This document shows positions 8,146-28,699 of a DNA stretch of 64,000 nt, piece after piece. The notes beneath the pieces are model-generated. The model had not been told where the DNA came from. It was given only the letters and a program-made list of their open reading frames with translations, and ran no database searches. The stretch's first letter is position 1, and each line of letters opens with the position of its first letter. The DNA comes from a virus. Taxonomy: Duplodnaviria; Caudoviricetes. Position numbers and translations under genes: made by a program. The stretch spans positions 32,001 through 96,000 of IMG/VR virus record IMGVR_UViG_3300031420_000495, one strand, 5' to 3'.

Positions 8146-8186
8146 AGCTCCGTGGTTATTGAAAGGACGACGGAGCTATTGTAGCA
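8146..8186 (-). promoter_or_regulatory. Extended -10 promoter plus RBS-sequestering hairpin
   Basis: TGcTACAAT at 8186-8178. The inverted repeat AGCTCCGT (8146-8153 / 8170-8177) covers the GGAG SD. Confidence 0.6.
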
Positions 8187-8189
8187 CGT

Positions 8190-9044
8190 TTAGATACCGA
8201 GAACGTCGAAAATTTCGTCCGCGTCGATTCCTTCTACTTTGGCTTTCTTGACGAGGGCTTTCAAGTCTGCCTTCGTAAGTTCACCACTGTATTCTTTGCC
8301 GGTGGTTTGGATCGCGTTCACGACAGCTTGAGGCAGTGTGCTGGCGTTCAGCTTCTTGACGATGTTGGCCACAGTCAGTGCATTCGCATTACGCTGGCGA
8401 GACTTCTCGTCATAGTGAGCGATGGTAGCTTCGTTGACCATGCCGGCCATCTTCTTGATCTTGTCAAGCTTGCTGTCGAAACGGGTTGCCCAGGACATGA
8501 TTGACTTGAAGAAAGCTTTCGCACGTTCAATGATACCTTCTTCGAGAACTTCCTCGTTGACTTCTTTCGAAACAGTCAGGCGTTTGATCGGCGGCTTCGG
8601 TGGTACGATCGTCGTATACTTTTCAGTAATCATGTCGACGCGGCTTTGCAGCTCGTCTGGAATGAGTGCTGACAAAGCAGCGATGACTTTCTCATAGTCA
8701 ATCTGTTTTGTCGGTTCACCCTTCTGGACTTCCTTGGCCATCGTCAGCGTGAACTGCGCTGTTTCAACGACACGTGTAAGTACAACGTCTTCGGCATTGA
8801 AGTAGTCTTGGATGTCGCCCTTCAGACGAGTGTTGAGCGCATCGTGCTCTTCCTTCATCTTCTTGATGCTGGCGTCCAGGCGAGCGTAACGCCGGGCGAG
8901 CTTTGTCATGCTGGCGGATTCGGTTCCGCTCAGCTTTGCGGTCACACGGTCAAGTGCGCCTTTGACTTGCTTCTCAGTGTACTTCGCGCTGTCTTTGCGA
9001 GCCTCGAGTAAGACGAGATGTTCTTTGAATGTCGGATAGTTCAT
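8190..9044 (-). CDS. Hypothetical protein with leader MNYPTFKEHLVLLEA (putative internal head protein)
   Basis: 284 aa with internal VNEE/LEEG/VNEA sites. Directly downstream of a late promoter. Confidence 0.75.
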   Translation of the reverse strand: MNYPTFKEHLVLLEARKDSAKYTEKQVKGALDRVTAKLSGTESASMTKLARRYARLDASIKKMKEEHDALNTRLKGDIQDYFNAEDVVLTRVVETAQFTLTMAKEVQKGEPTKQIDYEKVIAALSALIPDELQSRVDMITEKYTTIVPPKPPIKRLTVSKEVNEEVLEEGIIERAKAFFKSIMSWATRFDSKLDKIKKMAGMVNEATIAHYDEKSRQRNANALTVANIVKKLNASTLPQAVVNAIQTTGKEYSGELTKADLKALVKKAKVEGIDADEIFDVLGI

Positions 9045-9067
9045 GGAATTCCAGGGTGATAGAGCAA

Positions 9068-9104
9068 TTTCTTATTTAGCAGCTAATGCTATAATTTTCT
9101 GCGT
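9068..9104 (+). repeat. Dispersed 36-37 bp intergenic element, copy 1; contains minus-strand late promoter GCTAAATA (9080-9073)
   Basis: tttcttatttagCAGCTAATGCTATaattttctgcgt; matches 28893-28928 and reverse-complemented 53159-53194. Confidence 0.8.
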
Positions 9105-9310
9105 TATCCGTTTAGTTGCTGCTTACCCGCTGTCCTCGATTGATTTTCCCACATGCGTTGTGCGGAAATCAGTTCTGACATCTTGAATGTTTTGCCATTG
9201 AAAACCCAATGGCTTCCACGTCCTTCGAGTGTGAGTCCGCGCACGGATGCCTTCAGCGCTTCGAGTTCGCCTGGTGTCAGGGACGAGATTGGTGTGTATT
9301 CTACGAGCAT
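9104..9310 (-). CDS. Small hypothetical protein (MLVEYTPISS...)
   Basis: 68 aa. SD AAGGA precedes ATG 9310, one base after the upstream stop. Confidence 0.65.
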   Translation of the reverse strand: MLVEYTPISSLTPGELEALKASVRGLTLEGRGSHWVFNGKTFKMSELISAQRMWENQSRTAGKQQLNG

Positions 9311-9311
9311 G

Positions 9312-9791
9312 TTATTTCCTTTCAGTTGACGCTGATATGTCTGAAAATTGATATGATCCTGGCGGCAGCGCAGGTTGTGACGACTTGATTGCAAGATGCT
9401 TATATCCCACAACGACCTTGTGGGATGCAGCGCGACTCGGTGATGCGTAGTCAAGTGAGAACAGATGCGACTTGGTTTCCAGACAGGTAAATTGCATCTG
9501 AGAAATGACGCCTTCGCCACCATCCATTGCCTGAATGATAATCGCTGTAGGGCGTTGAACCAGGGACTGCAACAGTTCCAGGACTTCACCTGTGGCTGGT
9601 TGTTCAATCGTGAATGCCAGTTGCTTGTTCTTGAAATCAGTATCGATGCTGACGATTTGTGCCGTCAACTCAAGATTGTCTTCGATCCCGAAATCAGACG
9701 AACTGAATAGAACACGAAACTTGTTTTCAAGCAATGGCATCAAGATGCCTGCTGCTGTGCCTGGAATACCAAAATTTGATATAGATGCCAT
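9312..9791 (-). CDS. Tail tube (gp19-like) paralog
   Basis: MASISNFGIPG...LMPLLENKFRVLF...AMDGG...LDYAS follows the pattern of jumbo-phage tube proteins. Confidence 0.55.
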   Translation of the reverse strand: MASISNFGIPGTAAGILMPLLENKFRVLFSSSDFGIEDNLELTAQIVSIDTDFKNKQLAFTIEQPATGEVLELLQSLVQRPTAIIIQAMDGGEGVISQMQFTCLETKSHLFSLDYASPSRAASHKVVVGYKHLAIKSSQPALPPGSYQFSDISASTERK

Positions 9792-9800
9792 AGTGTTTCC

Positions 9801-10397
9801 TTATTGAATTATGCCTGAGTATCGTGGATTCAACTGCGAGTCGGCCCACTCAGGAATAAAGCCGAGATTGGATCGGAAGAACAGAACTTCCCAGTTCGAT
9901 GCTGATGCGGTTCCGAGCTTGCTCAGCTTCGGGCGGACGATGATGAACTTGACCGTTTCAGGATCATTCAAACCCTTCACGATGATCGGCATGTCGAGCC
10001 CGATGATCCGAACTTCGGTCTCCGGTCCAAACTGCTTCAGTTCAAAGGCCGGAGCAGGTAACTGGATCGAATGGATCGTGGACGGGTGCGGAGCTGGCAA
10101 CGACCGTTGGCCCTTGTGCGTCTCGCAGAATCTCATGACCGCATGCAACATCGCGTTGTACGAGAAATCATTCATTCCGCCTTGCTTGACGAGCTGTTTG
10201 ATAGTTTCACGGTCTGGCACATGATAGCCATTGCCCGCGTTTCGTTGCCTGGCGTTGTACGGACCCAGGAAATTGTCGAGTGCTTGATGAACCCTGAAGT
10301 GTGCTGCGACCATGCTTTCCAGGTCGCTGTAATCTTTGGAATTGGCTGGACGGCGCGCGTCGAGGCGCACACTCCAGCGTGGTAGTGTGTCAGTCAT
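9801..10397 (-). CDS. Hypothetical protein (MTDTLPRW...)
   Basis: 198 aa with typical codon usage, between the resolvase and the tube-like gene. Confidence 0.7.
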   Translation of the reverse strand: MTDTLPRWSVRLDARRPANSKDYSDLESMVAAHFRVHQALDNFLGPYNARQRNAGNGYHVPDRETIKQLVKQGGMNDFSYNAMLHAVMRFCETHKGQRSLPAPHPSTIHSIQLPAPAFELKQFGPETEVRIIGLDMPIIVKGLNDPETVKFIIVRPKLSKLGTASASNWEVLFFRSNLGFIPEWADSQLNPRYSGIIQ

Positions 10398-10401
10398 GAT
10401 T

Positions 10402-10953: not shown

Positions 10954-10980
10954 ATAAAGGACCTCCGTATGGTGATCCTC

Positions 10981-11846: not shown

Positions 11847-11847
11847 A

Positions 11848-16147: not shown

Positions 16148-16639
16148 TTACTCGTCCCTGGACGTGGTACGGAATGCGGTGTCATCAGAATTCAACGAGG
16201 ACCTGTTACGTTCCTGGAAAGAGAATGATGGGTTTGCGCCGGCATCAACCAACATTTGATCGCGAATATCGCGCTGCTTTTTCTCGTCTGCAAGATATTG
16301 CAAGAATGACCTGTAAGCCGCAGTCGTGTAGAAGGCAAATGGATTATCGGATTTCTCGGGATCGAACTTGTGCCAATTGGCGCAGAGGTTAACCACCGCG
16401 AAGGATACCATATCTTCTCGGAAAGTGTATTGACCGAATGATGGAATGAACGAATAACGTTCGGCAATCATGTAAAGCATTCGGGCTAACTCAGGGCTCA
16501 ACTTGTTACCATTTGCCTTGTCTTTCGCGATGGCTTCCATCAGCTGGGCATTTGTAACGTAGTGTGTTTTTGTACTACCGGTCGATTTTGCTCGCTTAGC
16601 GGGCGTGGTTTTTTGATGGACAGTTGGTTTCGTCGTCAT
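16148..16639 (-). CDS. gp55: Late-transcription sigma factor
   Basis: HYVTN...IAERYS...F..Y.FREDM....V.N.....FDPEKS.NPFA.YT.....SF. Confidence 0.9.
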   Translation of the reverse strand: MTTKPTVHQKTTPAKRAKSTGSTKTHYVTNAQLMEAIAKDKANGNKLSPELARMLYMIAERYSFIPSFGQYTFREDMVSFAVVNLCANWHKFDPEKSDNPFAFYTTAAYRSFLQYLADEKKQRDIRDQMLVDAGANPSFSFQERNRSSLNSDDTAFRTTSRDE

Positions 16640-16748: not shown

Positions 16749-16756
16749 CATAAATA
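16749..16756 (+). promoter_or_regulatory. Late promoter CATAAATA
   Basis: Upstream of ATG 16780. Confidence 0.7.
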
Positions 16757-16779
16757 TCCAACTAACGTAGAGGCAAGAC

Positions 16780-17481
16780 ATGGAACAAATTTCGGAAGCA
16801 ACAACCGTTGGGGAGCAGAAGACCCGCGCAGCTGTGATGGTCGGTCGTATGAACCCGCCAACTGCTGGACACTACAAGGTGATCGACACCATGAAGGGCT
16901 TCATCCGGAAGAACCCGGACCTTCAACTCTCTGCGACTCCGATCGTCGTCATCGTTGACGGCGAGAAAACCTCGCAAGACAAGAAACACAATCCGCTCAC
17001 GGCTGAAGAACGCATCAAGTTCATGAGCAGTTCCGGTCGTGCCAACGGTGTGATCTTCATCACTGCGCCTTCGGCTTTCGCCGCTTTCGAAGAAGTTCGG
17101 AAAGCAGGATACGAACCGATCGCAGTCGCTGCAGGATCGGACCGCATTACGAAATACGTCGGGCTCCTGGACAAATACTACACCAAGGCCGATGGATCGA
17201 AAATCAAACACGTTGCGATCGGTCTTGAGCGTGCGGAAGAGAATTCCGGGACCAAGAAGGGTGGCGCGATGGAAAAGGCACTGGATTCGCTGAAGAGCGG
17301 TTCGGAGCTAGACGTGTCCGAAGTATCTGGATCGATGGCGAGGCGTGCTGTCGAGCTGGGATACGAAGAAGAATTCGCCCAGATCGTAGGTCTGGGAAAT
17401 AAACCGAAGCTGGCCAAGATGATGTTCGATAAGGTCAAAGCTTCAATGGGAGAACCTGATGTCACTGATAAAGGCACTTGA
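16780..17481 (+). CDS. Phage cytidylyltransferase-like (HIGH-superfamily) nucleotidyltransferase
   Basis: GRMNPPTAGH, K.NPL...ER, AGSDR and SGS.AR motifs. Confidence 0.8.
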   Translation: MEQISEATTVGEQKTRAAVMVGRMNPPTAGHYKVIDTMKGFIRKNPDLQLSATPIVVIVDGEKTSQDKKHNPLTAEERIKFMSSSGRANGVIFITAPSAFAAFEEVRKAGYEPIAVAAGSDRITKYVGLLDKYYTKADGSKIKHVAIGLERAEENSGTKKGGAMEKALDSLKSGSELDVSEVSGSMARRAVELGYEEEFAQIVGLGNKPKLAKMMFDKVKASMGEPDVTDKGT

Positions 17482-18424
17482 CAGCGGAATTTCGTCGGCT
17501 ACAAGTTATCTGGCGACCAACGTTTCGACGAAAGTTTCCGAGGCGGCATCGTCCTTGTTCGGCACCTTTGGTGGTGCTGGCAAGATGGACAAGATTGCCG
17601 CTCAAGCAAAAACATTCAAGCAAATGCAAGCTGATGAGGTTCTGAAAGGAACCTCAACGAACTCAGCTGTTTCTGCCGTAGCCAATGCAAATACGTCGAG
17701 TGGCGAACCCGCTGCGACCGCTTCTCAAGTCAAATCCGCAACTGGCATGACGAGCGAGCGAAGCCTGCACAAGGTGATGCTGTCAGAGAACGGGACGAAG
17801 AATACCGTTGTGTTCGAAGTCATGCCGGAAATTGTAGAGCAGCATACTGTTGAATACGAAGGCGTTGCGCCTCCACAATTCCCTGGTGCTTTCCAGAAGT
17901 ACAAGGGCAATTCCTCGACCTCCTGGCAGTTGAACGCAACGTTCATCTCCCGCAATGCACAGGAGGCAACGACCAATTACAACTTCCTGATGATGCTTCG
18001 CGGCTGGACGAAACCGTACTTCGGCGAACGCACTGCTGGACAGTTTGATAAAAAGCTAGGTGCACCTCCACCTGTCCTGACGATGAGGGGCTTGCGTGAC
18101 CTAGTTGGTCCTGTCCCTGTCGTCATCACGTCCCTGAACTGGACTTGGCCGAAAGATGTTGACTATATTCCAACGACTGTCAAAGGTTCGGATGGAAACT
18201 ACGTCCCATTCCCGACGATCCTGTCGGTTCCAATCCAGCTCGTTGAATCCTATTCGATCGACCAGTTCAACAACTTCAGTCTCAACGACTACCGCGCAGG
18301 CCGCATGACGGCTGCATTCAACCAGGATGCAAGTGTTGAATTGCCTGAAGAGATTATGCAACCTGCGCGCGCGGCAGAAGCCAAGGCGATTGCTGACGGT
18401 ATGCCTGGAGGTCCGCAATCATGA
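17459..18424 (+). CDS. Baseplate tail-tube initiator (gp48/gp54-like)
   Basis: Y.GNSS..W.L.ATF...GAPPPVL......GPVPVVITSL.W.WP.DVDY pattern; first gene of the baseplate block. Confidence 0.65.
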   Translation: MSLIKALDSGISSATSYLATNVSTKVSEAASSLFGTFGGAGKMDKIAAQAKTFKQMQADEVLKGTSTNSAVSAVANANTSSGEPAATASQVKSATGMTSERSLHKVMLSENGTKNTVVFEVMPEIVEQHTVEYEGVAPPQFPGAFQKYKGNSSTSWQLNATFISRNAQEATTNYNFLMMLRGWTKPYFGERTAGQFDKKLGAPPPVLTMRGLRDLVGPVPVVITSLNWTWPKDVDYIPTTVKGSDGNYVPFPTILSVPIQLVESYSIDQFNNFSLNDYRAGRMTAAFNQDASVELPEEIMQPARAAEAKAIADGMPGGPQS

Positions 18425-18795
18425 GCGAAAACAAGAACAGCGTCTTCCGACGCAAGACCCGTTACGTCAGCGGCGGCGTAACCGAAGTCAGCACGAATCG
18501 CCTGGAATGGTGGGAACGAAACGTTTTCACCTCAGGCGACAATGACACATTGTACACAATCGACCAGCGCACTCAGGGTCGTATCGACCTGATTGCTGCG
18601 ATGTTCCTGGGCGAACCGCGCCTATGGTGGGTCATTGCCCAGTATAACAAAATCCTCGATCCGTTTGCAGAAATCGTTGCAGGCGCTCAAATCTATATTC
18701 CATCCCCAGAAAGAGTAGATGCTTTGCTTAACGGTCGTCTAGGTGGTACGCCATCGACCCGCGAAACGAAGGTATCGATTCTTCCACTAGTCTAA
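18421..18795 (+). CDS. Baseplate wedge protein with LysM-like fold (gp53-like)
   Basis: GRIDLIA..FLG...LWWVIA.YN.I.DP.....G..I.IP. Confidence 0.8.
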   Translation: MSENKNSVFRRKTRYVSGGVTEVSTNRLEWWERNVFTSGDNDTLYTIDQRTQGRIDLIAAMFLGEPRLWWVIAQYNKILDPFAEIVAGAQIYIPSPERVDALLNGRLGGTPSTRETKVSILPLV

Positions 18796-18796
18796 T

Positions 18797-21022
18797 ATGC
18801 CAGCATACAAACTTTATAATCCCCTCGACAAGTTCGCGTCGTATTCTATTCATCACATTTTATTGGCATGCCGTACGACTGAATCGGCAAAAGTGTTTGT
18901 CGACGACAACATAACTGTCCAGCGAGAAACCCTCGATGCAATCGAGCGAGTCAAACAACTCGGCGATCCTGTACCTATTGGTGAAGGCAATGTGGCCTAT
19001 CTGGTGATTGACACCAGGCGTTTCTCCCAGTTCTCGGTCGATAAGCTGGAGTACGAAGTCTTCATCAACGGTGTCGAAAAGGCAGGATCGCATGGCAACC
19101 TCGCCACGAACCTGGACATGGTTGTCACCGATTCTGTTGGCATTTCATTCATCAACTTCATCCAGTGGCTGATGAACGAGAAGATGCAGACGAACTTCGA
19201 TGGCATGGTATTCATGCACCGCATGGTATTCGTCGGCCACAATCCTGATGGCTCGACTGAAACCGTCCAGTCCGTTACGATCCCGATGCACCTGTTCAAC
19301 ATGGAACTAAACCTTGAAGCACTCAAGGGAACCTACACGATGAAGTTCATGCCAAACATGAATTTCGACGTGAAGGCGCACCATCGTTGGCTGAACATCC
19401 ACAAGGCATCGAATTACTTCACGGGTGACAAGTCGACCAATACCCTCGGTGAAATCATCGATTCGTTTGAAACCCAGCTGAACAGAGTTTCCGAAGAGTA
19501 TTACAACACCGTCCACAAAGCGATGGTCGATGCCGGCCGCGTTACAGGTGATGGCCAATATGGCCGAAAGGTAACGTACCAGATCACGATTCCTGCTGAC
19601 TGGCGTCCGATGAAGGTCAAGGGTTCGAGTACTGGTAACGCGACGGAAATCAACTTCAAGAAGATGTTCGAGGACCAGGATGCGAAGAAGCAGGCTGACG
19701 CACAGAAACAAGCTGATGAAGCAGAGAAGCAACGACTCGAAGCCGCGCAGAAGGCTGCGAAAGAAAATGGCGGGGTTGTCAAGGTGGCTGGTACGCCACT
19801 GAATACCCACGTTTCCGTGGAGACCGATCGTCAGATTACGGAAGTACTGGACTTCATCTTCAGGCAAGTCCCGGAGATTGCTGATCTTGGTGCTGGCAAG
19901 AAAGACGCCAGCTCAGTTACTTTCTACAAACACTTCGTCGGTATCACCAGCAACAACCAGGAAATCTGCGTCCACGTTGACGTTGTGCCGTTCCGTGTTC
20001 CGAACCTCCTGGTCAACGGCACAGGCGGAAACAAGACCGACAACAATACCTCGGCTCCGGTCGCGAAAGACGATGACCAGTTCTACCAGGAGGTTGGTAA
20101 GGACCGTGCTCGCCGTCCACGCAACTACATGGAGTTCGATTACATTTTCACCGGGAAGAACAAGGACGTATTGGCGTTTGACCTGAAGTTCCAGGACTTG
20201 CAGTGGATGCTGGCGAGCCAGCTGAACATGGGCCTGGGTGTAGGCGGGGTGGTAGAAAACCAGCCGACCGGTACCAAGCCTGTCGAAGACGGAACGACGA
20301 AAGTCCAGGAACGAGCTGAACTCGTCCTGACTCGCCCGTACGATGCGATCCTGATGCCGAAGCAAACCGACAAAGAACTGAAGAACTTCAGCGATTACAC
20401 CAGTCTCCTCAGCAAGGATGACCAGCTGCGCGCGATCAAAACGTCCAACGACTACATGAAGAATCTGTCGATGTATTACGCGATGGCACCAATCACGGCC
20501 ATGATGACGATCCGCGGGAACCCGGACATCATGACGAAGTTCAACCAGAACAGTTTGCTGGACCATCCTGGCTCGGAGCCTGAACCACGTGCCGCGACTT
20601 CCACTACCACATCGAACACGACCAGCCGTCCTGTTGCAGACTACGGCCCGCATAGCAACTACCGGATCGAGTTTGAGCGTCGCATCCTGGATCAGAACTA
20701 CATCGATGGAACAAACGAACAGCAGTTCAATAACAATGGTGGCACGTTCGAGCTGGTAAAAACCCTGGGCTCCGCGAACTATGCGACGTCCCCGGTATTT
20801 GTCACGGTCAATGTGAATGGCCCGAACGTCAAGGATTATCCTGGTCAATCCATTGTTGAAGGCGATTTCGCCCGGAAGCTGCTGACGGACAACTACTACG
20901 TTGTGTTCCGGGTCAAGAACAAGATCGAAGGCAACATCTTCACGCAGGAACTTGAATTGTATTCGCACAACATCTTCAGCGCTGGAGCTACAAAAGCTGT
21001 CATTCCAACTACGGGGTCATGA
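18797..21022 (+). CDS. Baseplate hub protein (gp27-like)
   Basis: 741 aa between the gp53-like and gp5-like genes; I.GNP and Y.V..V......F.Q.L hub-like C-terminus. Confidence 0.6.
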   Translation: MPAYKLYNPLDKFASYSIHHILLACRTTESAKVFVDDNITVQRETLDAIERVKQLGDPVPIGEGNVAYLVIDTRRFSQFSVDKLEYEVFINGVEKAGSHGNLATNLDMVVTDSVGISFINFIQWLMNEKMQTNFDGMVFMHRMVFVGHNPDGSTETVQSVTIPMHLFNMELNLEALKGTYTMKFMPNMNFDVKAHHRWLNIHKASNYFTGDKSTNTLGEIIDSFETQLNRVSEEYYNTVHKAMVDAGRVTGDGQYGRKVTYQITIPADWRPMKVKGSSTGNATEINFKKMFEDQDAKKQADAQKQADEAEKQRLEAAQKAAKENGGVVKVAGTPLNTHVSVETDRQITEVLDFIFRQVPEIADLGAGKKDASSVTFYKHFVGITSNNQEICVHVDVVPFRVPNLLVNGTGGNKTDNNTSAPVAKDDDQFYQEVGKDRARRPRNYMEFDYIFTGKNKDVLAFDLKFQDLQWMLASQLNMGLGVGGVVENQPTGTKPVEDGTTKVQERAELVLTRPYDAILMPKQTDKELKNFSDYTSLLSKDDQLRAIKTSNDYMKNLSMYYAMAPITAMMTIRGNPDIMTKFNQNSLLDHPGSEPEPRAATSTTTSNTTSRPVADYGPHSNYRIEFERRILDQNYIDGTNEQQFNNNGGTFELVKTLGSANYATSPVFVTVNVNGPNVKDYPGQSIVEGDFARKLLTDNYYVVFRVKNKIEGNIFTQELELYSHNIFSAGATKAVIPTTGS

Positions 21023-22113
21023 TGCAATACAATATCGTTGAAGGAACAGTCCTCTCTACCAACGACCCACAGCAAATGGGTCGTGTCAAAGTCTGGTGCC
21101 CAGCAATCGACGGAGAAGATTACAACATTGATCTTCTCCCATGGGCGACGTACCTCTCGCCATTTGCCGGGCAAACGAACACCTATCCAGCCGGTGCATC
21201 AGGTATGCCGGCGGAAGGACTTCACTCGTACGGGTTCTGGGCGATTCCAAAGATCGGAGCCAGGGTCATCGTTGCCATGCTGTATGGTGACGTGAACCAA
21301 CGCGTTTACATGGGATCAATCTTTTCCGACCACGGCAACCGTTCTCTCCCTGTTGGCCGCATGCGTCCTGACATTGGCCCGATGCCTTTGACCGATACGC
21401 TCGATCCGGTGCAACCACAAGCCTCGCACCTTCGTACCCAGTTCGATGGGAAAGTCGATGCGCCTGAAGCGCAAACTCGAGGCGTGTATGAACGGTCCGT
21501 TGCACAGGGTGAAGACAATCGAAATGGTTCGCAGGGTTACCAGCAAGCAACTATCGGCCCAGACCTCGACCCACAGACGTATTGCCTGACAACACCAGGA
21601 CGCCATGCGATTATCTTCCAGGATAATCCTGCGACTGGCAGGCTCCGTCTCAAAACGGCTGATGGTCACCAGATCATTTTCGACGATGCCAATGAACGCA
21701 TCTATATGTCGACTTCGCACGGAAATTCCTGGATCGAAATGGATAAGGACGGGCACATCCACGTCTATGGTGGCGCATCCGTTTCCGTTTCTGCAGGCGA
21801 AGACATCAACCTCTCCGCAGGCGGCAATGTGAATATTGCAGGCAAGGATGTCAACATCTCTGCTTCAGGTCACGCAAGGATGTCCGCATGTGACGATGTT
21901 TCCATTTCCGGCAAGGTTGTAAATATCGAAAGCACTGGGAAGATGAACTTCCTGGCCGCTGCACCGATGGCACTGACTGCGCCAACCATCTCGATCAATG
22001 GCGCGAAAGCCTCGAATGCAGAATGCGCAGACAAACCGAGCATCACACCGAATCATGAACCATGGGAACGCCCGGCAACCAAGGGAACCCGCGGTAAAAA
22101 TTGGAAGAAATAA
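21019..22113 (+). CDS. gp5: Central spike protein (gp5/VgrG-like OB fold + beta-helix), no lysozyme domain
   Basis: DPQQMGRVKVWCP...PWA...GFWAIPKIGARV.V....GD, beta-repeats, C-terminal HEPW. Confidence 0.85.
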   Translation: MMQYNIVEGTVLSTNDPQQMGRVKVWCPAIDGEDYNIDLLPWATYLSPFAGQTNTYPAGASGMPAEGLHSYGFWAIPKIGARVIVAMLYGDVNQRVYMGSIFSDHGNRSLPVGRMRPDIGPMPLTDTLDPVQPQASHLRTQFDGKVDAPEAQTRGVYERSVAQGEDNRNGSQGYQQATIGPDLDPQTYCLTTPGRHAIIFQDNPATGRLRLKTADGHQIIFDDANERIYMSTSHGNSWIEMDKDGHIHVYGGASVSVSAGEDINLSAGGNVNIAGKDVNISASGHARMSACDDVSISGKVVNIESTGKMNFLAAAPMALTAPTISINGAKASNAECADKPSITPNHEPWERPATKGTRGKNWKK

Positions 22114-22487
22114 TGGCAACAACACCCTACGTCGGATTCTCTACATTCGGAAAGGACAGCAAAAGCTTTCAGCTCCACGGCAAAGAGCTGATTGTCCGCG
22201 ACCTGTTGAATCACATCTACACGCTGAAGGGCGAACGGGTCATGCTGCCTGACTTCGGCACCAGGATTCCGCTGATGGCATTCGAACCGCTGGACCAATT
22301 GACCTTGGCAGCGGTCGAAGAAGACTTGCGCGCGGTCATTGAATATGATCCCCGCGTTGAACTGATGGACATCGCTGTGCTGGCTTTGCCGGACAATAAC
22401 GCAATCGTCGCGCTACTTGACCTCAGCTATGTGGAACTCGGTGGCCCAGTTGAGACCCTACGTCTCGAATTTCCCGTTGGCTCATAA
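22113..22487 (+). CDS. gp25: Baseplate wedge subunit gp25 family
   Basis: DLLNHIYT.KGERVM.PDFGT.I....FEP....DPRV; TAATG coupling. Confidence 0.9.
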   Translation: MATTPYVGFSTFGKDSKSFQLHGKELIVRDLLNHIYTLKGERVMLPDFGTRIPLMAFEPLDQLTLAAVEEDLRAVIEYDPRVELMDIAVLALPDNNAIVALLDLSYVELGGPVETLRLEFPVGS

Positions 22488-22489
22488 CG

Positions 22490-22497
22490 TGTAAATA
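22490..22497 (+). promoter_or_regulatory. Late promoter TGTAAATA
   Basis: Between gp25 and gp6. Confidence 0.6.
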
Positions 22498-22522
22498 GAC
22501 CACTAACGCAACAGGACATTTA

Positions 22523-25500
22523 ATGGCACTTCGCACAACATATTCTGCAGAGACCTGGGAAAAGATTTACCAGGCCTTTTCTGAAGTCAGCTTCGTTTCG
22601 TATGACTTCGACAGCATCAAGCAGTCGCTGATAGATTATACCAGGACCTACTACCCGGAAGTTTTCAATGACTACATCGAGTCGTCTGAATACATCGCCA
22701 TGCTTGAAATGTTTGCGTACATCGCAGAACAGCTGGCGTACCGTGTCGATATGGTCGCACACGAAAACTTCATCACAACTGCCCAGCGTAAGCAATCGAT
22801 CCTGCGCCTGGCAAAGCTGATTTCCTACAAGGCAACGCGTAACATTCCTGTACGCGGTCTCGTCAAGATCAATTCCGTCACCACGTCCGAACGCGTCCTG
22901 GATTCCCGTGGTACCGACCTTGCCGGTTTGACAATTGTCTGGAACGATCCGAACAATGTCAATTGGAAAGAGCAGTTCATCCTGGTGATGAACCGGGTAC
23001 TGAACAACCGCTTCGGCCAACCATCGAAGACATTCCAGATTGGTGACGTCGTCATGGACCTGTACTCCCTGAAGAATTCCCCAGCATCCGCAAGGAATGG
23101 TGTCTTCCCGTTCACAGCTGCTGCAGGCCAAGATACTTACCCGATGGAAATCGTACCGGCCGACCTGGATGCAAACGGCCCGTTCGAACGTGAACCAGAC
23201 CTGACGTCACCGATGTCCCTGATCTATGCCAACGACGGTATTGGCGACGGCTCGGACTACACCGGATTCCTGGGTTATGTCAAGCAGGGTTCGCTCACCC
23301 GCATCGACTACAACATTGAAGACCGTCTGCCGGATCGCCGCATCGACTTCGACCCGCTGAACATCAACCACACCGACGTCTGGGTGCAGAAGATCGAGAA
23401 CGATCGCATTGCGGAACGTTGGACACAGGTTGACACAATCTCCGAACAGAATCTCGTCTTCAATGAACTCCGCGATACCCGCAAGAAGTTCGAGGTCGAC
23501 ACACGTGAATCGGACGCCATCACGGTTATCTTCGGCGATGGCGACTTCTCGGATATGCCGCAGGGTCTCTTTCGCTTCTGGATGCGTCAGTCGGCAAACC
23601 GTTCGATCGTTATCCAGAAGAACAAAGTGCAGGGTCAAACCTTTGGTTTCACCTACACCTCGACTGCTGGTAACACCGAATCCTGCTCGATGACCTTCAG
23701 CCTGACCACGACCCTGCAAAATGGTTCTGGTACAGAAACAATCGAGCACATCCGTCGTTCTGCGCCAGCAACATACTACGCCCAGAATCGTATGGTCAAT
23801 GGTCAGGATTACAACACGTACCTGCTGAAAGACCCATCGATTATCCGCGAGAAGGCAATCAACCGCACATTCGCTGGACAACCGAAACACATTGACTGGA
23901 ATGACGCATCCGGTACGTACGAGAATATCAAACTGTTTGGTGATGACGCCTCGATGCGTTACAGCCTCGGTCTTGAATCCCAGACAACCAGTGTGTCTGG
24001 ACAGGCACTGATCGACTCCGTCATCGAACCCCTGCTCAGCTCGTCCGGCGTCATCAACATGATGCTTCACATCTCTGCATCCGATCCGCTGATGCAGGGC
24101 GTTGTATCGTCTCCTCGTCGTAAGTTCATCGAGGATAACCGCGGTGGCAAGTACAATGCTTACGGCGGTTCTTTCGTATCAACAATTCTCGGCTCAACAG
24201 CCGATGGCTCCCTGAAGGAAAAGACCACGATTCAAGGTTTGATCGACCGTCACTGGTATGGCGAACCTCTTGAGTACGTGCTCGATGCGAATGGCCAGGT
24301 GATGGCTCGCATTCCAGACCCAGACCTGAATCCGAAAGATGACTCGCGCATCTATGCGGCAACAGTTCCCCGCACTATCGATGGTGTGAATAAGTTCCCA
24401 CCAGGCGACATCGGTTCGGGACTCCAACCAATCGCAGAACAAGATGACTTCGCACTTCGTTACCATCGCTACACGGCAATGATCGGTGACGGCAATATTG
24501 TCATCAATACCAATCCAGCATTCGCCACAATCCTGCCGAATGAAGTCTGGACAATCGAGGTAGCAGCGGATGGTAGGACCCTGTACGTACGATCGAATCT
24601 CCGTGGCACATTGCCAACGGGTTCAATCGGTGATGCGTACCAGCTGAAGTCCAGCACATCCTCGGACTCGACGCTCTTCTTCACTGTGACTTCTACGTCA
24701 CTCGAAGCAGGCGACTCTTTCATTCTGGAAACGAATGGCACGGCAACCTATCCGAAGCTTCGCTGCAAGGTGAACCTGAATGGTTGGTGGGAAGTTCTCG
24801 GCACTGGTAAGCTGAAGTATTACGAGGGCGGACAGCTGAAAGAAGGCGATGAACTCCTGTTCACGACCGACGATTCATCTGATGACCTGCGCCAACATGG
24901 CTGGATCATCTTCGTCCACAAGCTCCGTCAAGCGCCATCGAACAATATCATCGGGTACGAAGTGCATAACCGTACACTGAAACTGTCAGTCACTTCGCCA
25001 AACACGAAGTTCTGGTATAATTCCGTGAACCAGATTCTGGACAACGACACGAAGAACCGGGTGTATGACAACATTCGTATCCTCGGATCGAACTTCAATG
25101 CATCGGGCGAGCTGCTGAAGCAGGCTCAGAAGTACGACGTCATTGGTGCTGTCAAGGACAAAGACGGTATTGTTGACCTGCATTCGCTTGAAGTTGTGCC
25201 AACAGATCTTCTGCAGGAAGACGAGAGTGGTGACTTGGTTCCAGACCGTCTGCTACAATATGAAACATTCTCCGGCGGTGCTACACCATCGTACGAATAT
25301 TTCCGTCTGGATAATCCTACCTACATCTTCAAGGCAACCGATACCGCATTGATCGGTCAAGCAAAGGCGGCAAGTTGGACACCGGGTTCCTTCGTGGATC
25401 GTTCGCTCACGTACGGACGACGCCAGCGTATGCCGGCGGTTGGATCAGCGGATACCGGACTTGATTTCATGTGGCAACACTTCTCGCCATACACGAACAT

Positions 25501-26071
25501 CATCGACCCGTCCGTCACCAATATCCACGATGTGTATGTAATGACACGTGGTTACTATGACAACGTAATCAACTTTGTCCGTGGTCTCTCCCCGTATGCC
25601 CCGACTGCACCTACTCCGCTGGAACTCCGCAATGCGTACGGATACTTGCTGAACAACAAGATGCTGTCCGACACGGTCGTCCTGCATCCTGGCAAGATTC
25701 GTCTGCTCTTCGGTGGATTGGCTGAACCGCAACTCCGTGCAAGGTTCAAGGTTGTGCGTAGCCAGACCGGTACGCTCACCAATGAACGGATCAAGGAAGA
25801 AGTGTTGAACGTTATCAACACGTTCTTCGACATCGATGGTTGGGACTTCGGAGATACCTTCTATGCTACGAAACTGATTTCGTTGATTCACCAGCGTTTG
25901 CCAGCGGACATTGCATCCGTTGTGCTCGTGCCGGTATACTCGACGAACTCTTTCGGTTCATTGTTCACGGTGGAATCCGGCTTCGACGAGATTCTTCAGT
26001 CAGCTGCAGAACTGTCCGACATTGAAGTGGTCGAAGCATTGACCTCCAACGTTCTTCGCCAGTCGAAATAA
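22523..26071 (+). CDS. gp6: Baseplate wedge subunit gp6 family
   Basis: DFDSIKQSL..Y...F.D..ESS....L...AY......YR.D....ENF..TA.R..S...LA..I.Y; ETIE.IR..AP..Y..QNR.V...DY. Confidence 0.9.
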   Translation: MALRTTYSAETWEKIYQAFSEVSFVSYDFDSIKQSLIDYTRTYYPEVFNDYIESSEYIAMLEMFAYIAEQLAYRVDMVAHENFITTAQRKQSILRLAKLISYKATRNIPVRGLVKINSVTTSERVLDSRGTDLAGLTIVWNDPNNVNWKEQFILVMNRVLNNRFGQPSKTFQIGDVVMDLYSLKNSPASARNGVFPFTAAAGQDTYPMEIVPADLDANGPFEREPDLTSPMSLIYANDGIGDGSDYTGFLGYVKQGSLTRIDYNIEDRLPDRRIDFDPLNINHTDVWVQKIENDRIAERWTQVDTISEQNLVFNELRDTRKKFEVDTRESDAITVIFGDGDFSDMPQGLFRFWMRQSANRSIVIQKNKVQGQTFGFTYTSTAGNTESCSMTFSLTTTLQNGSGTETIEHIRRSAPATYYAQNRMVNGQDYNTYLLKDPSIIREKAINRTFAGQPKHIDWNDASGTYENIKLFGDDASMRYSLGLESQTTSVSGQALIDSVIEPLLSSSGVINMMLHISASDPLMQGVVSSPRRKFIEDNRGGKYNAYGGSFVSTILGSTADGSLKEKTTIQGLIDRHWYGEPLEYVLDANGQVMARIPDPDLNPKDDSRIYAATVPRTIDGVNKFPPGDIGSGLQPIAEQDDFALRYHRYTAMIGDGNIVINTNPAFATILPNEVWTIEVAADGRTLYVRSNLRGTLPTGSIGDAYQLKSSTSSDSTLFFTVTSTSLEAGDSFILETNGTATYPKLRCKVNLNGWWEVLGTGKLKYYEGGQLKEGDELLFTTDDSSDDLRQHGWIIFVHKLRQAPSNNIIGYEVHNRTLKLSVTSPNTKFWYNSVNQILDNDTKNRVYDNIRILGSNFNASGELLKQAQKYDVIGAVKDKDGIVDLHSLEVVPTDLLQEDESGDLVPDRLLQYETFSGGATPSYEYFRLDNPTYIFKATDTALIGQAKAASWTPGSFVDRSLTYGRRQRMPAVGSADTGLDFMWQHFSPYTNIIDPSVTNIHDVYVMTRGYYDNVINFVRGLSPYAPTAPTPLELRNAYGYLLNNKMLSDTVVLHPGKIRLLFGGLAEPQLRARFKVVRSQTGTLTNERIKEEVLNVINTFFDIDGWDFGDTFYATKLISLIHQRLPADIASVVLVPVYSTNSFGSLFTVESGFDEILQSAAELSDIEVVEALTSNVLRQSK

Positions 26072-26074
26072 TGG

Positions 26075-26129
26075 CATGCAATTCTCGGGTTGGTGCGTAG
26101 AATACACACATCTAACCCAACCCGAGAAT
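26075..26129 (+). promoter_or_regulatory. Early promoter (CATGCA-17-TAGAAT) inside a perfect 13-bp inverted repeat
   Basis: ATTCTCGGGTTGG 26081-26093 / CCAACCCGAGAAT 26117-26129; -10 lies in the loop. Confidence 0.65.
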
Positions 26130-26132
26130 AAA

Positions 26133-26471
26133 ATGAACGATCTGCACGTTGTCTTCAGCCGTAATTGCATGGTTGAGAAAAATCCCCAGCTGTTCTCCCT
26201 CGAAACCAAGACCTTCATCCCACTGCCGGAAGCGCTCGCCGAGTTCGACAACGGCACCGTTCTGAAGAAGAACGCAGACGGTACCTATGTCGAGAATCCG
26301 CTCACGGACGACGAGCGCGACGACTTCTCGGCTGACGAATCGATTCATGATGCTATGAACGATTACATCGTCAAGTCCTGCACCGGCGGCACGAACTACG
26401 ATGCCGCATGGTTCGCCTGCGACTTCAACCCGTTCATGGAAGCATTCACCACGTTCCACTTCGAGGTATAA
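26133..26471 (+). CDS. Hypothetical early protein (MNDLHVVF...)
   Basis: 112 aa with typical codon usage. Confidence 0.75.
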   Translation: MNDLHVVFSRNCMVEKNPQLFSLETKTFIPLPEALAEFDNGTVLKKNADGTYVENPLTDDERDDFSADESIHDAMNDYIVKSCTGGTNYDAAWFACDFNPFMEAFTTFHFEV

Positions 26472-26476
26472 AACCC

Positions 26477-26524
26477 TGTACAAACTCCGTAGTTGCCGGT
26501 ATAATGCATCCATCAACTACGGAG
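26477..26524 (+). promoter_or_regulatory. Early promoter (TGTACA-17-TATAAT) inside a perfect 11-bp inverted repeat covering the SD
   Basis: CTCCGTAGTTG 26485-26495 / CAACTACGGAG 26514-26524; -10 at 26500-26505. Confidence 0.75.
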
Positions 26525-26532
26525 CAGTCAAC

Positions 26533-26718
26533 ATGGAAGATACGCACAAGGATGTGATCGAGCTGCATGAAGCAGCAACGAAGCTGCTGAACCATCTCGA
26601 AGATGTGCTGGACGAAAAGAACTTCGACGCCATCTCCGCGAAGCTGTGGAACGATGTCAGCATGTTCCTCGTGATGCGCGGCATCAAGGTGGAAACTCCG
26701 AACATCAAGGAGGCGTGA
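26533..26718 (+). CDS. Small hypothetical protein (MEDTHKDV...)
   Basis: 61 aa; SD GGAG. Confidence 0.7.
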   Translation: MEDTHKDVIELHEAATKLLNHLEDVLDEKNFDAISAKLWNDVSMFLVMRGIKVETPNIKEA

Positions 26719-27140
26719 TGGGCCGTCGTAAAGGTTTGTACGTACACTACCAATACATCTCGCTGGAAGAGGGTCTTGCTGCAGTCAATGCAACCCTTCA
26801 CGAGAAGCCGAAAGCGAAACGTCACCGTGTTGGCGATTACGAGGTTCACACCACCGGTCTACGCCTTCGTGTCTTCGCCATCAAAGGCATCTGTTGCTAT
26901 CTCTGTGGGCTGGAAGCCACACAGTTCTCGATCGATGACATGCCGAACGGCCGTCAACCTCACATGAACCTGTGGGGCGAGAAGGATGGTAAACCAATGT
27001 TATTCACGCACGATCACGTCATCGACCGTGCCAAAGGTGGTGCAGATGCCATCGAGAATGCAGAACCTTGTTGCACGAATTGCAACTGGGAAAAGAATCT
27101 TCGCGAGAACTTCAGCCACGCATACAAGGGAAAAGCTTAA
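26718..27140 (+). CDS. HNH endonuclease
   Basis: CYLC...THDHVIDRAKGGAD.IEN...CC.NCN.EK; SD GGAGG; TGATG coupling. Confidence 0.85.
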   Translation: MGRRKGLYVHYQYISLEEGLAAVNATLHEKPKAKRHRVGDYEVHTTGLRLRVFAIKGICCYLCGLEATQFSIDDMPNGRQPHMNLWGEKDGKPMLFTHDHVIDRAKGGADAIENAEPCCTNCNWEKNLRENFSHAYKGKA

Positions 27141-27682
27141 CGCTGGCGGTGTCTCAAAACTTCGGTGGAGGCAATGACTTCCCCATGGTCGGCAAGACCG
27201 TGGGTAAGAACAACCTTGGTTCCCTTTGGCAGATTGAACACATGCTTTTCGCGGGCGCCATTGTTACTGTAGGACGATTCGTTTTCGTCACCTTTGGTGG
27301 TCATTGACATCCATTTGAATCGCGTGTCAGAACGCGGGTAAGGTTCGTTCGTGAAACGGTAAAGGGTAGTATCTTTTTCCAATGGTGTTTCGCAGCTGTG
27401 CAGCACGGAATCGATTGTGTCACAGTTGAGACGGTATTTTCCATCAGGGCCTTTCATGCCATCGGAAACCCATTCGTCAAGTTCTTCTTCCCGTTCCTCT
27501 TCACTGGCGTTCATGTACCGTTTCACGCCTTCAAGAAACACTGGATCATCTGACCAGTCCTTCATACCGATCTGGAGGTATTCATAATTTAAGTACAGAA
27601 GTCTGCCCCATGCTTGGATCACAAACCTCTGAACCATGTTATAATTACCACCAGCCTCGTTGAGGATTTCATACAGTTTCAT
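27137..27682 (-). CDS. ADP-ribosyltransferase-like protein (R-S-E) with leader MKLYEILNEA
   Basis: LYR, WMSMTT, VFNLPKGTKV and HGEVI in ART order; own late promoter and SD AAGGA. Confidence 0.65.
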   Translation of the reverse strand: MKLYEILNEAGGNYNMVQRFVIQAWGRLLYLNYEYLQIGMKDWSDDPVFLEGVKRYMNASEEEREEELDEWVSDGMKGPDGKYRLNCDTIDSVLHSCETPLEKDTTLYRFTNEPYPRSDTRFKWMSMTTKGDENESSYSNNGAREKHVFNLPKGTKVVLTHGLADHGEVIASTEVLRHRQR

Positions 27683-27705
27683 AACGTTCCTTTTTAAGAA
27701 TCCAG

Positions 27706-27713
27706 TATTTATG
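27706..27713 (-). promoter_or_regulatory. Late promoter CATAAATA
   Basis: 24 nt upstream of ATG 27682; overlaps the ATG of the divergent gene at 27711. Confidence 0.65.
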
Positions 27714-28088
27714 AAGAACATCTATCCAATCTATCTGCCGGACCGTACGGCTCGTGATCTTGTGCAACGGTTTGCACACGCGGAATACGAAGAAAATACC
27801 CGTTACCATTCTCACAGTTACCGGTACGAGTTCTCCGCCAATGTACTCGAATCCGGCGACGTCGAACTCCGTGTGTGGTATTCCTTCGACGAAGGTTACG
27901 TGATGGGCTCCGGCAATGCGTTCACCAAGACCGTCCGCCCGTACAACGATGCAGACCTGTTGGCCATCAAGCGCAACAAGATGATGCATCTCGCCGCTGC
28001 AGCTTACGAGGAATCGGAAGAGCAGAAGCGCATGAAGGCGATTCTCGCCACCGCAAAACAAATGTTTCCAAACGAGGAATTTCAATGA
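27711..28088 (+). CDS. Hypothetical protein (MKNIYPIY...)
   Basis: 125 aa; first of a coupled run of small genes. Confidence 0.7.
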   Translation: MKNIYPIYLPDRTARDLVQRFAHAEYEENTRYHSHSYRYEFSANVLESGDVELRVWYSFDEGYVMGSGNAFTKTVRPYNDADLLAIKRNKMMHLAAAAYEESEEQKRMKAILATAKQMFPNEEFQ

Positions 28089-28441
28089 GCATCAATGAAC
28101 CAACCCAAGAAGAACTTCGCCTCCGTGCCGCCAATGGTGTGGATTCCTACAAGACCGGCTACCGTCACGGGCTTGCCGAAAGCGAGCAAGAACTGGGTCT
28201 CGCCAGACTGACGATCGAACAGCTGAAGCAACGCATCAGCAATCAAGACGAGCACATCGCGCTGCTCGAAGCGACGGTCCTCCGTATCGGCGCCACCGTC
28301 GAAGAAGAAATTACCGACGAAAATGCACTGGGCTATCGTCCGCCGTGTTGCGACCATGGCAAGAGCGACAAGTGCTGCAACTACAACGAGGGCGAATGCG
28401 CGGCCGACGCTGAACTGCGTGCAATGGGACGCAGCAAATGA
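28085..28441 (+). CDS. Hypothetical coiled-coil protein with C-terminal Cys cluster
   Basis: MSINEPT...PPCCDHGKSDKCCNY; ATGA coupling. Confidence 0.7.
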   Translation: MSINEPTQEELRLRAANGVDSYKTGYRHGLAESEQELGLARLTIEQLKQRISNQDEHIALLEATVLRIGATVEEEITDENALGYRPPCCDHGKSDKCCNYNEGECAADAELRAMGRSK

Positions 28442-28644
28442 ACGTGCCACCAGTTCGCGGACTCCAAGTCTTCAAGCTCGTTGGCAAAGACGGCACACAA
28501 GACGTCTACGCCACCGTCATCGCAGAAAACCTCGAGCAGGCCGAAAAGCTTGTTACCCAGCAATGCTGGGGTTTCCGCCGCACACAAGGCGGACCAATCA
28601 CCAGCGCATGTTCGCCGCATGTGGTTTCAATTCACAAGCATTAA
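28438..28644 (+). CDS. Small hypothetical protein
   Basis: 68 aa; ATGA coupling. Confidence 0.6.
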   Translation: MNVPPVRGLQVFKLVGKDGTQDVYATVIAENLEQAEKLVTQQCWGFRRTQGGPITSACSPHVVSIHKH

Positions 28645-28648
28645 ACGC

Positions 28649-28699
28649 TGTGCATTCTCAGTGGTGTTGGGTATAATGAACCCATCAACCACGGAGAAT
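28649..28699 (+). promoter_or_regulatory. Early promoter (TGTGCA-17-TATAAT) inside an imperfect hairpin covering the SD
   Basis: -35 at 28649-28654, -10 at 28672-28677. ATTCTC.GTGGT pairs with ACCAC.GAGAAT. The downstream ccatcaacYacggag is shared with 26510-26524. Confidence 0.7.

Follow-up and report, generated by a model that had tools for sequence, protein, structure and literature searches.

Several small genes in the 257-kb genome of an uncultured, giant, T4-related phage are preceded by a promoter that lies within an inverted repeat, and this raises the question of what a hairpin in that position does for the gene behind it. A preliminary description of four such cassettes had proposed that they silence early genes on read-through mRNA. 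The computational analysis reported here, centred on a 64,000-nt stretch of the genome (the window), supports that reading: the cassettes are probably promoter-in-hairpin units which make a gene's translation depend on the promoter that belongs to it. They are a variant of a known T4 mechanism, applied genome-wide and at early-type as well as late promoters.

Promoters inside inverted repeats

Two promoter classes were identified in the genome. The sigma70-type class, TGTRCA-N17-TATAAT, has 17 exact matches genome-wide, 16 of which are intergenic, while the reversed control gave none; its -35 element differs from TTGACA, and a conserved CATC marks the predicted transcription start, placed by motif geometry 7 nt past the -10. 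These promoters are presumably early or pre-late; no RNA run was found to contain this DNA. The second class carries ATAAATA and was identified as the T4-type late promoter because a gp55-like late sigma factor gene is present.

All four inverted repeats are present (Table 1), and each site has sigma70-type -10/-35 elements of this recurrent class. For sites 2, 3 and 4 the right arm lies over the Shine-Dalgarno (SD) sequence ACGGAG, the common SD of this genome. The right arm of site 1 spans GAGAA, the sole purine-rich stretch ahead of its ATG. The start at site 4, previously placed inside the left arm, is predicted to fall there when counted from the -10. Sites 2 and 3 have a 27-nt block in common. 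Perfect repeats of at least 11 bp with loops of 8-32 nt occur 9 times in the genome and 2.0 times in Markov shuffles, and those of at least 13 bp 3 and 0.25 times, respectively. An 8-bp repeat by itself is no more than chance predicts (some 110 per genome), so that the case for site 4 comes entirely from its position and from an ortholog with an SD-hiding hairpin in the related phage G003.

Table 1. Coordinates of the cassettes and associated genes in the window
Feature	Position	Strand	Basis or remark
Late-class example	4646..4702	+	ATAAATA 4667-4673; duplex energy -12.5 kcal/mol
Site 4 cassette	8140..8186	-	8 bp stem
Site 4 arms	left 8177-8170 (in discriminator), right 8153-8146 (contains ACGGAG)	-	inverted repeat
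Site 4 promoter	extended -10 TGcTACAAT 8186-8178 (TACAAT 8183-8178); ATG 8142-8140	-	motif
gp55-like late sigma factor gene	16148..16639	-	phrog_234, E 1e-31; blastp to T4 185-aa protein, 2e-8
Late operon running into site 1, including baseplate wedge gene 22523-26071	16750..26071	+	ATAAATA 16750-16756
Site 1 cassette	26075..26135	+	13 bp perfect stem
Site 1 arms	left 26081-26093, right 26117-26129	+	inverted repeat
Site 1 promoter	-35-like CATGCA 26075-26080; -10 TAGAAT 26098-26103 in loop	+	motif
Site 1 start	predicted ~26110 (A of CATC); ATG 26133	+	motif geometry
112-aa ORFan served by site 1	26133..26471	+	no PHROG match
Site 2 cassette	26477..26535	+	11 bp perfect stem
Site 2 arms	left 26485-26495, right 26514-26524 (contains ACGGAG)	+	inverted repeat
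Site 2 promoter	-35 TGTACA 26477-26482; -10 TATAAT 26500-26505	+	motif
Site 2 start	predicted ~26512; ATG 26533	+	motif geometry
61-aa ORFan served by site 2	26533-26718	+	ORF
HNH endonuclease gene abutting 61-aa ORFan	26718-27140	+	PHROG HNH families, down to 5e-12
Site 3 cassette	28649..28706	+	imperfect stem, duplex energy -15.0 kcal/mol
Site 3 arms	left 28654-28669, right 28686-28699 (contains ACGGAG)	+	inverted repeat
Site 3 promoter	-35 TGTGCA 28649-28654; -10 TATAAT 28672-28677	+	motif
Site 3 start	predicted ~28684; ATG 28704	+	motif geometry
2758-aa virion protein gene closing island	28970..37278	+	late promoter ATAAATA 28970-28976
Further, weaker early-type cassette	62679..62722	-	duplex energy -12.4 kcal/mol
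Weaker cassette promoter	TGTGCA 62722-62717; TATAAT 62699-62694	-	motif
Weaker cassette arms	left 62714-62708; right 62685-62679, abutting SD AAGGAA	-	serves gene 62179-62667

Sites 1-3 lie within an inserted accessory island, 2.9 kb long and with a late gene on either side, which is in line with the earlier view that genes of presumably early class sit inside late operons. The late genes flanking the island are adjacent in phages RsoM2USA and XacN1, with the gene for the virion protein immediately behind that for the baseplate wedge. The operon that enters the island comprises seven co-directional genes with one late motif in common, and no terminators beyond chance were found between 22 and 29.2 kb. 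For the 61-aa ORFan of site 2, a search of 5.8 billion proteins found no homolog.

In the proposed mechanism the 5' arm is promoter DNA that would remain untranscribed from that same promoter, mostly the -35/-10 spacer and sometimes the stretch from the -10 to the start, and the 3' arm is the SD region. Read-through RNA from the abutting upstream gene would carry both arms, fold and hide the ribosome-binding site (RBS), while RNA from the local promoter would start between the arms and leave the site open. The predicted cost of opening the RBS agrees with this, as does the position of the left arm upstream of the predicted start. Across sites 1-4 opening is predicted to require 9-16 kcal/mol in read-through RNA and 0.4-5 kcal/mol in local RNA (15.7 vs 0.4 at site 1, 12.1 vs 5.1 at site 2, 14.9 vs 3.1 at site 3 and 9.1 vs 2.7 at site 4), a gap of about 10 kcal/mol. 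The corresponding predictions for the strong early set are 13.5 and 3.4 kcal/mol; promoter-less genes average 5.9 kcal/mol, with values of at least 12 in only 4.6%. Since the local promoter at sites 1-3 is sigma70-type and the incoming RNA would be late baseplate-operon mRNA, the accessory genes would be made early and kept silent late, and no terminator breaking the late operon would be needed. At part of the ATAAATA promoters the same device would work in the classical T4 direction.

Promoter-SD complementarity across the genome and in relatives

Of 29 early-type promoters about half, and of 48 late ones about a quarter, have untranscribed DNA that is complementary to the SD region of their own gene; the remainder, about half of the former and three quarters of the latter, are without the hairpin design. 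Arms of the same cassette pair more stably than mismatched arms do, at both early (-12.1 vs -7.8 kcal/mol) and late promoters (-9.1 vs -7.3 kcal/mol; permutation p<5e-5 for each). When the left arm was reversed as a control for composition, with four genomes pooled, the difference persisted for the early (-10.15 vs -7.47, p=2e-7) and the late class (-8.91 vs -7.20, p=2.5e-7). The SD pairs specifically with the promoter window: the average is -10.8 there, -6.0 in a window placed further upstream and -7.8 at genes that have no promoter of their own.

Among the 32 strong cassettes the left arm occupies roughly positions -29 to -14, counted from the predicted start, or falls in the discriminator. 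The -10 and the start separate the two arms, with loops of 7-33 nt (median 16 nt), and the stems measure 8-17 bp. The SD is covered in 28 of the 29 strong cassettes with a recognisable SD. Against the reading counts that a hairpin of any kind, placed in a 60-nt intergenic space, has to overlap promoter or SD elements to some degree. As previously noted for the four stems, arm sequences vary between cassettes while own pairs stay complementary. That the arms covary yet differ in sequence argues against a protein operator, and no palindromic half-site common to all sites was found. Nor do the repeats combine the GC-rich stem, short loop and U-run of an intrinsic terminator.

All 17 strong early hairpins stand 39-157 nt behind a co-directional gene with no terminator in between, so that transcription could enter from upstream; promoters that are divergent, behind a long gap or behind a terminator have weak hairpins. 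Hairpin strength was not significantly predicted by the class, late or early, of the nearest promoter upstream. Upstream of the weaker cassette at 62679..62722, the co-directional gene carries a late promoter. In the late-class example, located in a divergent late-promoter region, the promoter and the DNA upstream of ATAAATA pair with the SD region of gene 4703-5539.

The own-versus-mismatched test was significant for both promoter classes in three related metagenomic phages (G001-G003). Ralstonia phage RsoM2USA gave a significant result as well, and so did T4, with a weaker effect. In the ortholog of the site 1 cassette (L149) a compensatory G-C to A-U change was observed. Homologs of the site 1 gene, at 75-85% identity, occur in three different genomic contexts and have the hairpin only where they have their own promoter; promoter-less orthologs have none. 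The ortholog of site 4 in G003 retains an SD-hiding hairpin of 12 bp in which both the arms and the register differ, and the G003 ortholog of the gene at 202247-203245 (in the numbering of the window, extended beyond it) likewise has a hairpin with other arms. At the site 3 ortholog (L154) the promoter is present and the hairpin absent.

Other readings of the hairpins

The cassettes recall the promoter-early stem-loop (PeSL) cassettes of RB49/phi1, PST and nt-1 (PMC2839356, PMC4122927), and it could be argued that the stem-loop stops or attenuates incoming transcription, that the repeated promoter is a recombination site which shuffles ORFans, and that SD masking is incidental. We regard this as unlikely. 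The likeness is clear in the units themselves, which are short (about 60 nt), intergenic and combine a strong sigma70-type promoter and its A/T-rich stretch with a stem-loop and, at the 3' end, an SD and ATG (PMC2839356); the genes behind them are small, accessory and located in variable regions, and some of the copies are almost identical. The block common to sites 2 and 3, the three contexts of the site 1 gene and the rarer conservation of strong-hairpin genes in relatives (4 of 17, against 187 of 357 genes, p=0.025) would fit recombination as well. However, PeSL stems are compact terminators wholly in or beside the promoter, with the SD outside the stem; those of RB49 have both arms within the spacer, and spacer-SD complementarity was not detected there (p=0.15). 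The arms described here instead bracket the -10 and the start and end on the SD, only 1 of the 32 strong cassettes has a T-run after the stem, and the genuine terminators of this phage look different, with GC-rich stems, tetraloops and T-runs. The excess of ORFans among strong-hairpin genes disappears on gene-length matching (p=0.28), and recombination leaves arm-specific covariation unexplained.

An element for RNA processing or stability, either a site cut by RNase III or by a nuclease of the phage, or a cap that protects the 3' end of the upstream mRNA, appears similarly improbable, even though the hairpins follow directly past the upstream stop codon (gaps of 55-70 nt) and T4 RegB inactivates early mRNAs by cleaving at GGAG in the SD (PMC3014915), a motif contained in ACGGAG. 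Stems of this length are short for RNase III, and a 3' cap requires neither coverage of the SD nor a promoter between the arms. A search for the RegB family gave no match and is uninformative, as a control search likewise gave none; moreover, if the SD were cleaved, read-through RNA would be silenced just the same.

A function at the level of DNA, with the repeat around the -10 acting as a cruciform, a supercoil-sensitive promoter element or the site of a dimeric regulator, is very improbable. The bracketing of the -10, the almost wholly Watson-Crick stems and the weak strand asymmetry (a sense-strand preference of 26 vs 12 in early cassettes, p=0.036, and none in late ones) would suit it, but about 9% of pairs are G-U on the sense strand, the varying arms offer no common operator, and loops with a median of 16 nt disfavour cruciform extrusion. 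Such a function also gives no reason why one arm should always be the SD, or why hairpins are absent at divergent promoters and promoter-less orthologs. Chance or base composition, plausible for an 8-bp repeat such as that of site 4, can hardly account for the whole, being contradicted by the controls run in several genomes (permutation, reversal and shuffling), by the number of long repeats in excess of expectation and by the conservation in orthologs.

Relation to T4 and wider implications

The reading we prefer, translation tied to the local promoter, has its closest precedent in the T4-type hairpins that sequester the RBS and contain a nested late or middle promoter, known from e, soc, 49, I-TevI/II/III and segB, and from Aeh1 mobE (PMC3014915, PMC2988022). 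As in e, soc and 49, the 3' arm at all four sites holds the SD, local transcripts would by motif geometry be largely without the 5' arm, and RNA that reads through is predicted to be silent. The late ATAAATA cassettes are direct counterparts, in a phage that has a gp55-like sigma factor. In contrast to the T4 type, sites 1-4 use sigma70-type promoters and the temporal direction would be reversed, with early genes shielded from later RNA; moreover, the design recurs at dozens of genes, whereas the T4-type cases are a handful, and one cassette, that of site 2, heads the HNH endonuclease gene. The description of the T4 logic as inverted thus holds at the sigma70-type sites, but not as the sole direction, since part of the late promoters would use the ordinary one.

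Should the mechanism hold, temporal class would be set partly at translation, by where a transcript starts, beyond promoter firing, and this would explain how jumbo phages accommodate dozens of small accessory genes in long late operons without terminators or mistimed expression. It is conceivable, and we advance it tentatively, that translational insulation is a general grammar common to T4-superfamily phages from T4 to jumbo phages, in which the untranscribed DNA of a promoter serves as the anti-SD of its own leader and an inserted gene is translated only from own-promoter RNA. Early and late genes could then be packed on one strand without terminators, and ORFan cassettes would be portable between contexts. 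For annotation the arrangement offers a sequence rule for locating promoters and predicting productive transcripts, and for synthetic operons a compact, protein-free insulator design.

The contrast originally drawn with T4, which silences late genes in this way, stands in part only, because an early-promoter version exists in T4 too. At alc, alt.-3 and regB a GTTTAC-type promoter has a spacer complementary to the gene's own SD, with a gap of about 60 nt; we found no published description of these early cassettes in the literature. As the arrangement is present at these three genes and in the cultured phage RsoM2USA, it is directly testable in laboratory systems. Own pairs in the T4 early set average -7.5 kcal/mol and mismatched pairs -6.0 kcal/mol (p=0.002), with only a few strong cases, unlike the phage studied here.

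Promoter classes and the four inverted repeats

The window spans positions 32001-96000 in an IMG/VR virus record of 257 kb, which probably covers a ~375-kb genome incompletely, since a contig of 375,534 bp records proteins identical to those of the window. Among cultured phages it is closest to Ralstonia phage RsoM2USA (45% amino-acid identity), XacN1 and PA5oct, and it encodes a T4 gp6-like baseplate wedge protein as well as a gp55-like late sigma factor (16148-16639; phrog_234, E 1e-31; blastp to the T4 185-aa protein). No RNA run was listed with the window DNA, only two phyllosphere DNA runs that are maybe its source.

Two promoter motifs recur in the genome, with genes called by a simple in-house caller and transcription starts deduced from motif spacing. 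The heptamer ATAAATA occurs in 58 copies (27 expected from composition), 49 of which precede a called start in the same orientation by 5-90 nt; given the presence of gp55, it is taken as a T4-type late promoter. The second motif consists of an A/T-rich stretch, cTGTRCA, 17 nt, gTATAAT, 5 nt and CATCrAC. Exact matches to TGTRCA-N17-TATAAT number 17, of which 16 are intergenic (intergenic DNA makes up 8% of the genome; reversed control, 0), and allowing one mismatch per hexamer gives 29 copies ahead of called genes. Judged by their sequence, these would be sigma70-type, pre-late promoters starting at the A of CATC; they could be early or middle and are called early here. A third promoter-like motif, (c)atgKTACAAT, combines TGn with TACAAT as an extended -10, lacks the TGTRCA -35, precedes at least eight genes and may form a separate temporal class. 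True terminators of this genome combine a compact GC stem with a tetraloop and a T-run, and several lie directly ahead of promoters; in some composites such a GC-rich terminator lies just 5' of ATAAATA.

The preliminary description had placed promoter-bearing inverted repeats ahead of four small genes (sites 1-4), and all four were present as placed. Perfect repeats of at least 11 bp with loops of 8-32 nt were found nine times in the genome, compared with 2.0 in Markov shuffles (4.5x); a lone 8-bp repeat is at chance level.

Coordinates of cassettes and associated features (window coordinates unless stated; predicted opening energies in kcal/mol)
Feature	Position	Strand	Description	Read-through RNA	Local RNA
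Site 1	arms 26081-26093 + 26117-26129	+	perfect 13-bp stem, TAGAAT in loop, ATG 4 nt past stem	15.7	0.4
Site 2	arms 26485-26495 + 26514-26524	+	perfect 11-bp stem flanking TATAAT; TGTACA 17 nt 5' of -10	12.1	5.1
Site 3	arms 28654-28669 + 28686-28699	+	imperfect stem; TGTGCA-N17-TATAAT frame as at site 2	14.9	3.1
Site 4	arms 8177-8170 + 8153-8146	-	8-bp stem starting right behind extended -10 TGcTACAAT	9.1	2.7
HNH endonuclease gene	26718-27140	+	abuts 61-aa gene served by site 2
Island minus-strand gene	27137-27682	-	own ATAAATA promoter, within otherwise plus-strand island
Divergent late-promoter region	4646-4702		57 nt, one ATAAATA per strand
Genes served by 4646-4702	1439-4645; 4703-5539	-; +	1068-aa gene (-); gene (+)
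Terminator + ATAAATA composite	61774-61810	-	in window
Terminator + ATAAATA composites	~93122, 167611, 204532		beyond window
(c)atgKTACAAT copy	8178-8186	-	in window, site 4 promoter
(c)atgKTACAAT copies	~64581, 77432, 120253, 135517, 164379, 171449, 173807		beyond window
T4 early cassettes (NC_000866 coordinates)	alc start 136275; alt.-3 start 123032; regB start 62740		-35/-10 spacer complements SD

Complementarity between promoter DNA and the SD region

Folding of the 70 nt upstream of each called gene revealed many further cassettes of like build, in which untranscribed promoter DNA (left arm) complements the SD region of the gene (right arm). The earlier observation is thereby confirmed and much extended: the design is genome-wide. 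Pairing was scored between the untranscribed promoter DNA (-31 to -1 from the inferred start) and the 22 nt directly preceding the ATG; own promoter-leader pairs were then compared by permutation with all mismatched ones. This was preferred to a joint structural alignment or covariance model because, among the cassettes, pairing register and -10-to-ATG distance differ, so that an alignment would be fitted to the structure. Own pairs were more stable in the early class (-12.1 vs -7.8 kcal/mol; permutation p<5e-5), with 52% of own and 8.7% of mismatched pairs at -12 kcal/mol or lower, and also in the late class (-9.06 vs -7.26 kcal/mol, p<5e-5; 23% and 7.7%). Some data points are not independent, as a number of cassettes are near-identical, yet this renders the mismatched control conservative. 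The signal was lost when the left arm was reversed with its composition intact (four genomes pooled; early class, -10.15 vs -7.47, p=2e-7; late class, -8.91 vs -7.20, p=2.5e-7). The SD paired better with the promoter window than with a window farther upstream (-10.8 vs -6.0; Wilcoxon p=6e-5), and pairing in 263 promoter-less genes was weaker than with the promoter window (-7.8, p=0.003). With fixed windows, late-class and promoter-less genes did not differ, the late signal appearing only in the promoter-anchored test.

In 32 strong early cassettes from four genomes, the median stem was 13 pairs and the median loop 16 nt. Left arms run from roughly -29 to -14, counted from the start; 26 of them are in the spacer, three overlap the -10 and three fall in the discriminator. 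Right arms occupy roughly -19 to -5, counted from the ATG, with the SD inside the stem in 28 of the 29 cassettes having a recognisable one. For the strong early set, predicted energies for opening -15 to +3 averaged 13.5 kcal/mol on read-through RNA, transcribed from an upstream gene, and 3.4 kcal/mol on local RNA, while promoter-less genes averaged 5.9 kcal/mol, with only 4.6% at 12 or above.

Genomic setting and related phages

All 17 strong early cassettes lie behind a co-directional gene, at a gap of 39-157 nt (mostly 55-70) and with no intervening terminator, while weak hairpins occur at the three divergent promoters and at promoters behind long gaps or terminators. Among promoters whose -35 has no more than one mismatch, tight co-directional settings hold 14 strong and six weak cases, compared with one strong and eight weak elsewhere. 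Whether the nearest promoter upstream was late or early predicted hairpin strength only as a trend.

Sites 1-3 fall in a 2.9-kb island (26072-29001) that contains small ORFans, one late gene on the minus strand and a gene for an HNH endonuclease. It is inserted between the wedge gene and the gene for a 2758-aa virion protein, two late genes that are adjacent in RsoM2USA and XacN1. The late operon running into site 1 has ATAAATA only once, at 16750, and terminators not beyond chance, which fits the earlier proposal that the hairpins let early genes sit within late operons. In 16 metagenomic relatives the genes behind the wedge gene vary, are tightly coupled and lack promoters. No positional orthologs of sites 1-3 were found downstream of the wedge gene in 27 IMG/VR loci, because the relatives bear different promoter-less, translationally coupled genes there. 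ORFan enrichment among cassette genes was not significant after length matching, and a RegB family search matched neither this genome nor the control genomes.

Both promoter motifs are shared with the IMG/VR contigs G001 (112 kb), G002 (185 kb) and G003 (350 kb), in which own pairs again exceeded mismatched ones in the early (p=0.0014, <5e-5 and <5e-5, respectively) and late class (p=0.012, <5e-5 and 0.002), as they did in RsoM2USA (early, p=1.5e-4; late, p<5e-5). The arms are highly diverse among the 36 cassettes listed, and together with the excess of own over mismatched pairing this bears out the view that structure is kept in stems of unlike sequence.

Orthologs of cassette genes serve as natural experiments. 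The 112-aa ORFan of site 1 (26133-26471) has homologs of 75-85% identity at four loci (L149, L150, L151, L152) in three neighbourhoods. At L149, in a 373-kb relative, the cassette is kept, with 11 invariant pairs, a one-pair shift at the ends and one compensatory G-C to A-U change, which is anecdotal as two sequences are compared. In two other contexts, behind a helicase gene and terminator or overlapping its upstream gene, the gene has neither promoter nor hairpin. The G003 ortholog of the site 4 gene (blastp, 51% identity; no match in the related-locus search) has a hairpin of 12 bp whose arms differ and which begins at the -10 itself and reaches the SD and start codon, and the gene at 202247-203245 (window coordinates) carries strong SD-hiding hairpins with unrelated arms in both this genome and G003 (34% identity). 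Against the pattern, one site 3 ortholog carries a promoter and lacks a hairpin (in another, the contig breaks off at the -10), and the G003 ortholog of the gene at 91115-91402 (window coordinates) lacks an SD-hiding hairpin. Homologs of the 61-aa site 2 product were not found in a search of 5.8 billion proteins. One homolog of the 112-aa ORFan comes from an assembly labelled Acinetobacter sp. (GCA_045628685.1), where its contig measures 15.9 kb; this may hint at the host.

Candidate mechanism and comparison with T4 and RB49

The reading we favour, and regard as reasonably probable, is that translation is discriminated by transcript origin. As the preliminary description proposed, read-through RNA is predicted to fold and hide the SD while local RNA stays open, with opening energies at the four sites of 9.1-15.7 and 0.4-5.1 kcal/mol, respectively; its interpretation is supported in silico. 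A role of the hairpin in RNA processing or stability appears unlikely, and the read-through RNA would be silenced in that case too. An inverted repeat acting at the DNA level would be consistent with the stems' weak strand asymmetry, the sense strand being only slightly favoured over the antisense in stability; it is disfavoured by arms that vary among cassettes while their link to the SD is constant, and by the lack of a hairpin at divergent promoters and promoter-less orthologs. Terminators or recombination sites fail as an explanation on stem geometry and on the scarcity of T-runs, which follow one of the 32 strong early stems.

Discrimination by transcript origin is documented for T4 e, soc, 49, I-TevI/II/III and segB and for Aeh1 mobE, where the promoter inside the hairpin is late or middle (PMC3014915 section 29; PMC2988022 section 12), and the late cassettes of this genome are ordinary members of that kind. 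The proposed mechanism is the well-known one of T4; what seems new is its use with early-type promoters, genome-wide and in a distant jumbo-phage lineage. An early-promoter version was not found in PMC3014915, PMC2988022 or the literature searched.

The nearest described objects joining an early promoter to a stem-loop are the PeSL cassettes of RB49 (PMC2839356, PMC4122927), which resemble those described here in cassette format and in being associated with small accessory genes. In RB49, however, both arms lie within the spacer and no spacer-SD complementarity was detected (p=0.15), so that the present design is not PeSL. The same test applied to T4 itself gave -7.5 kcal/mol for own and -6.0 kcal/mol for mismatched pairs (p=0.002), the strongest cases being alc and alt.-3, which have a nearly identical cassette, followed by regB and the modB region.
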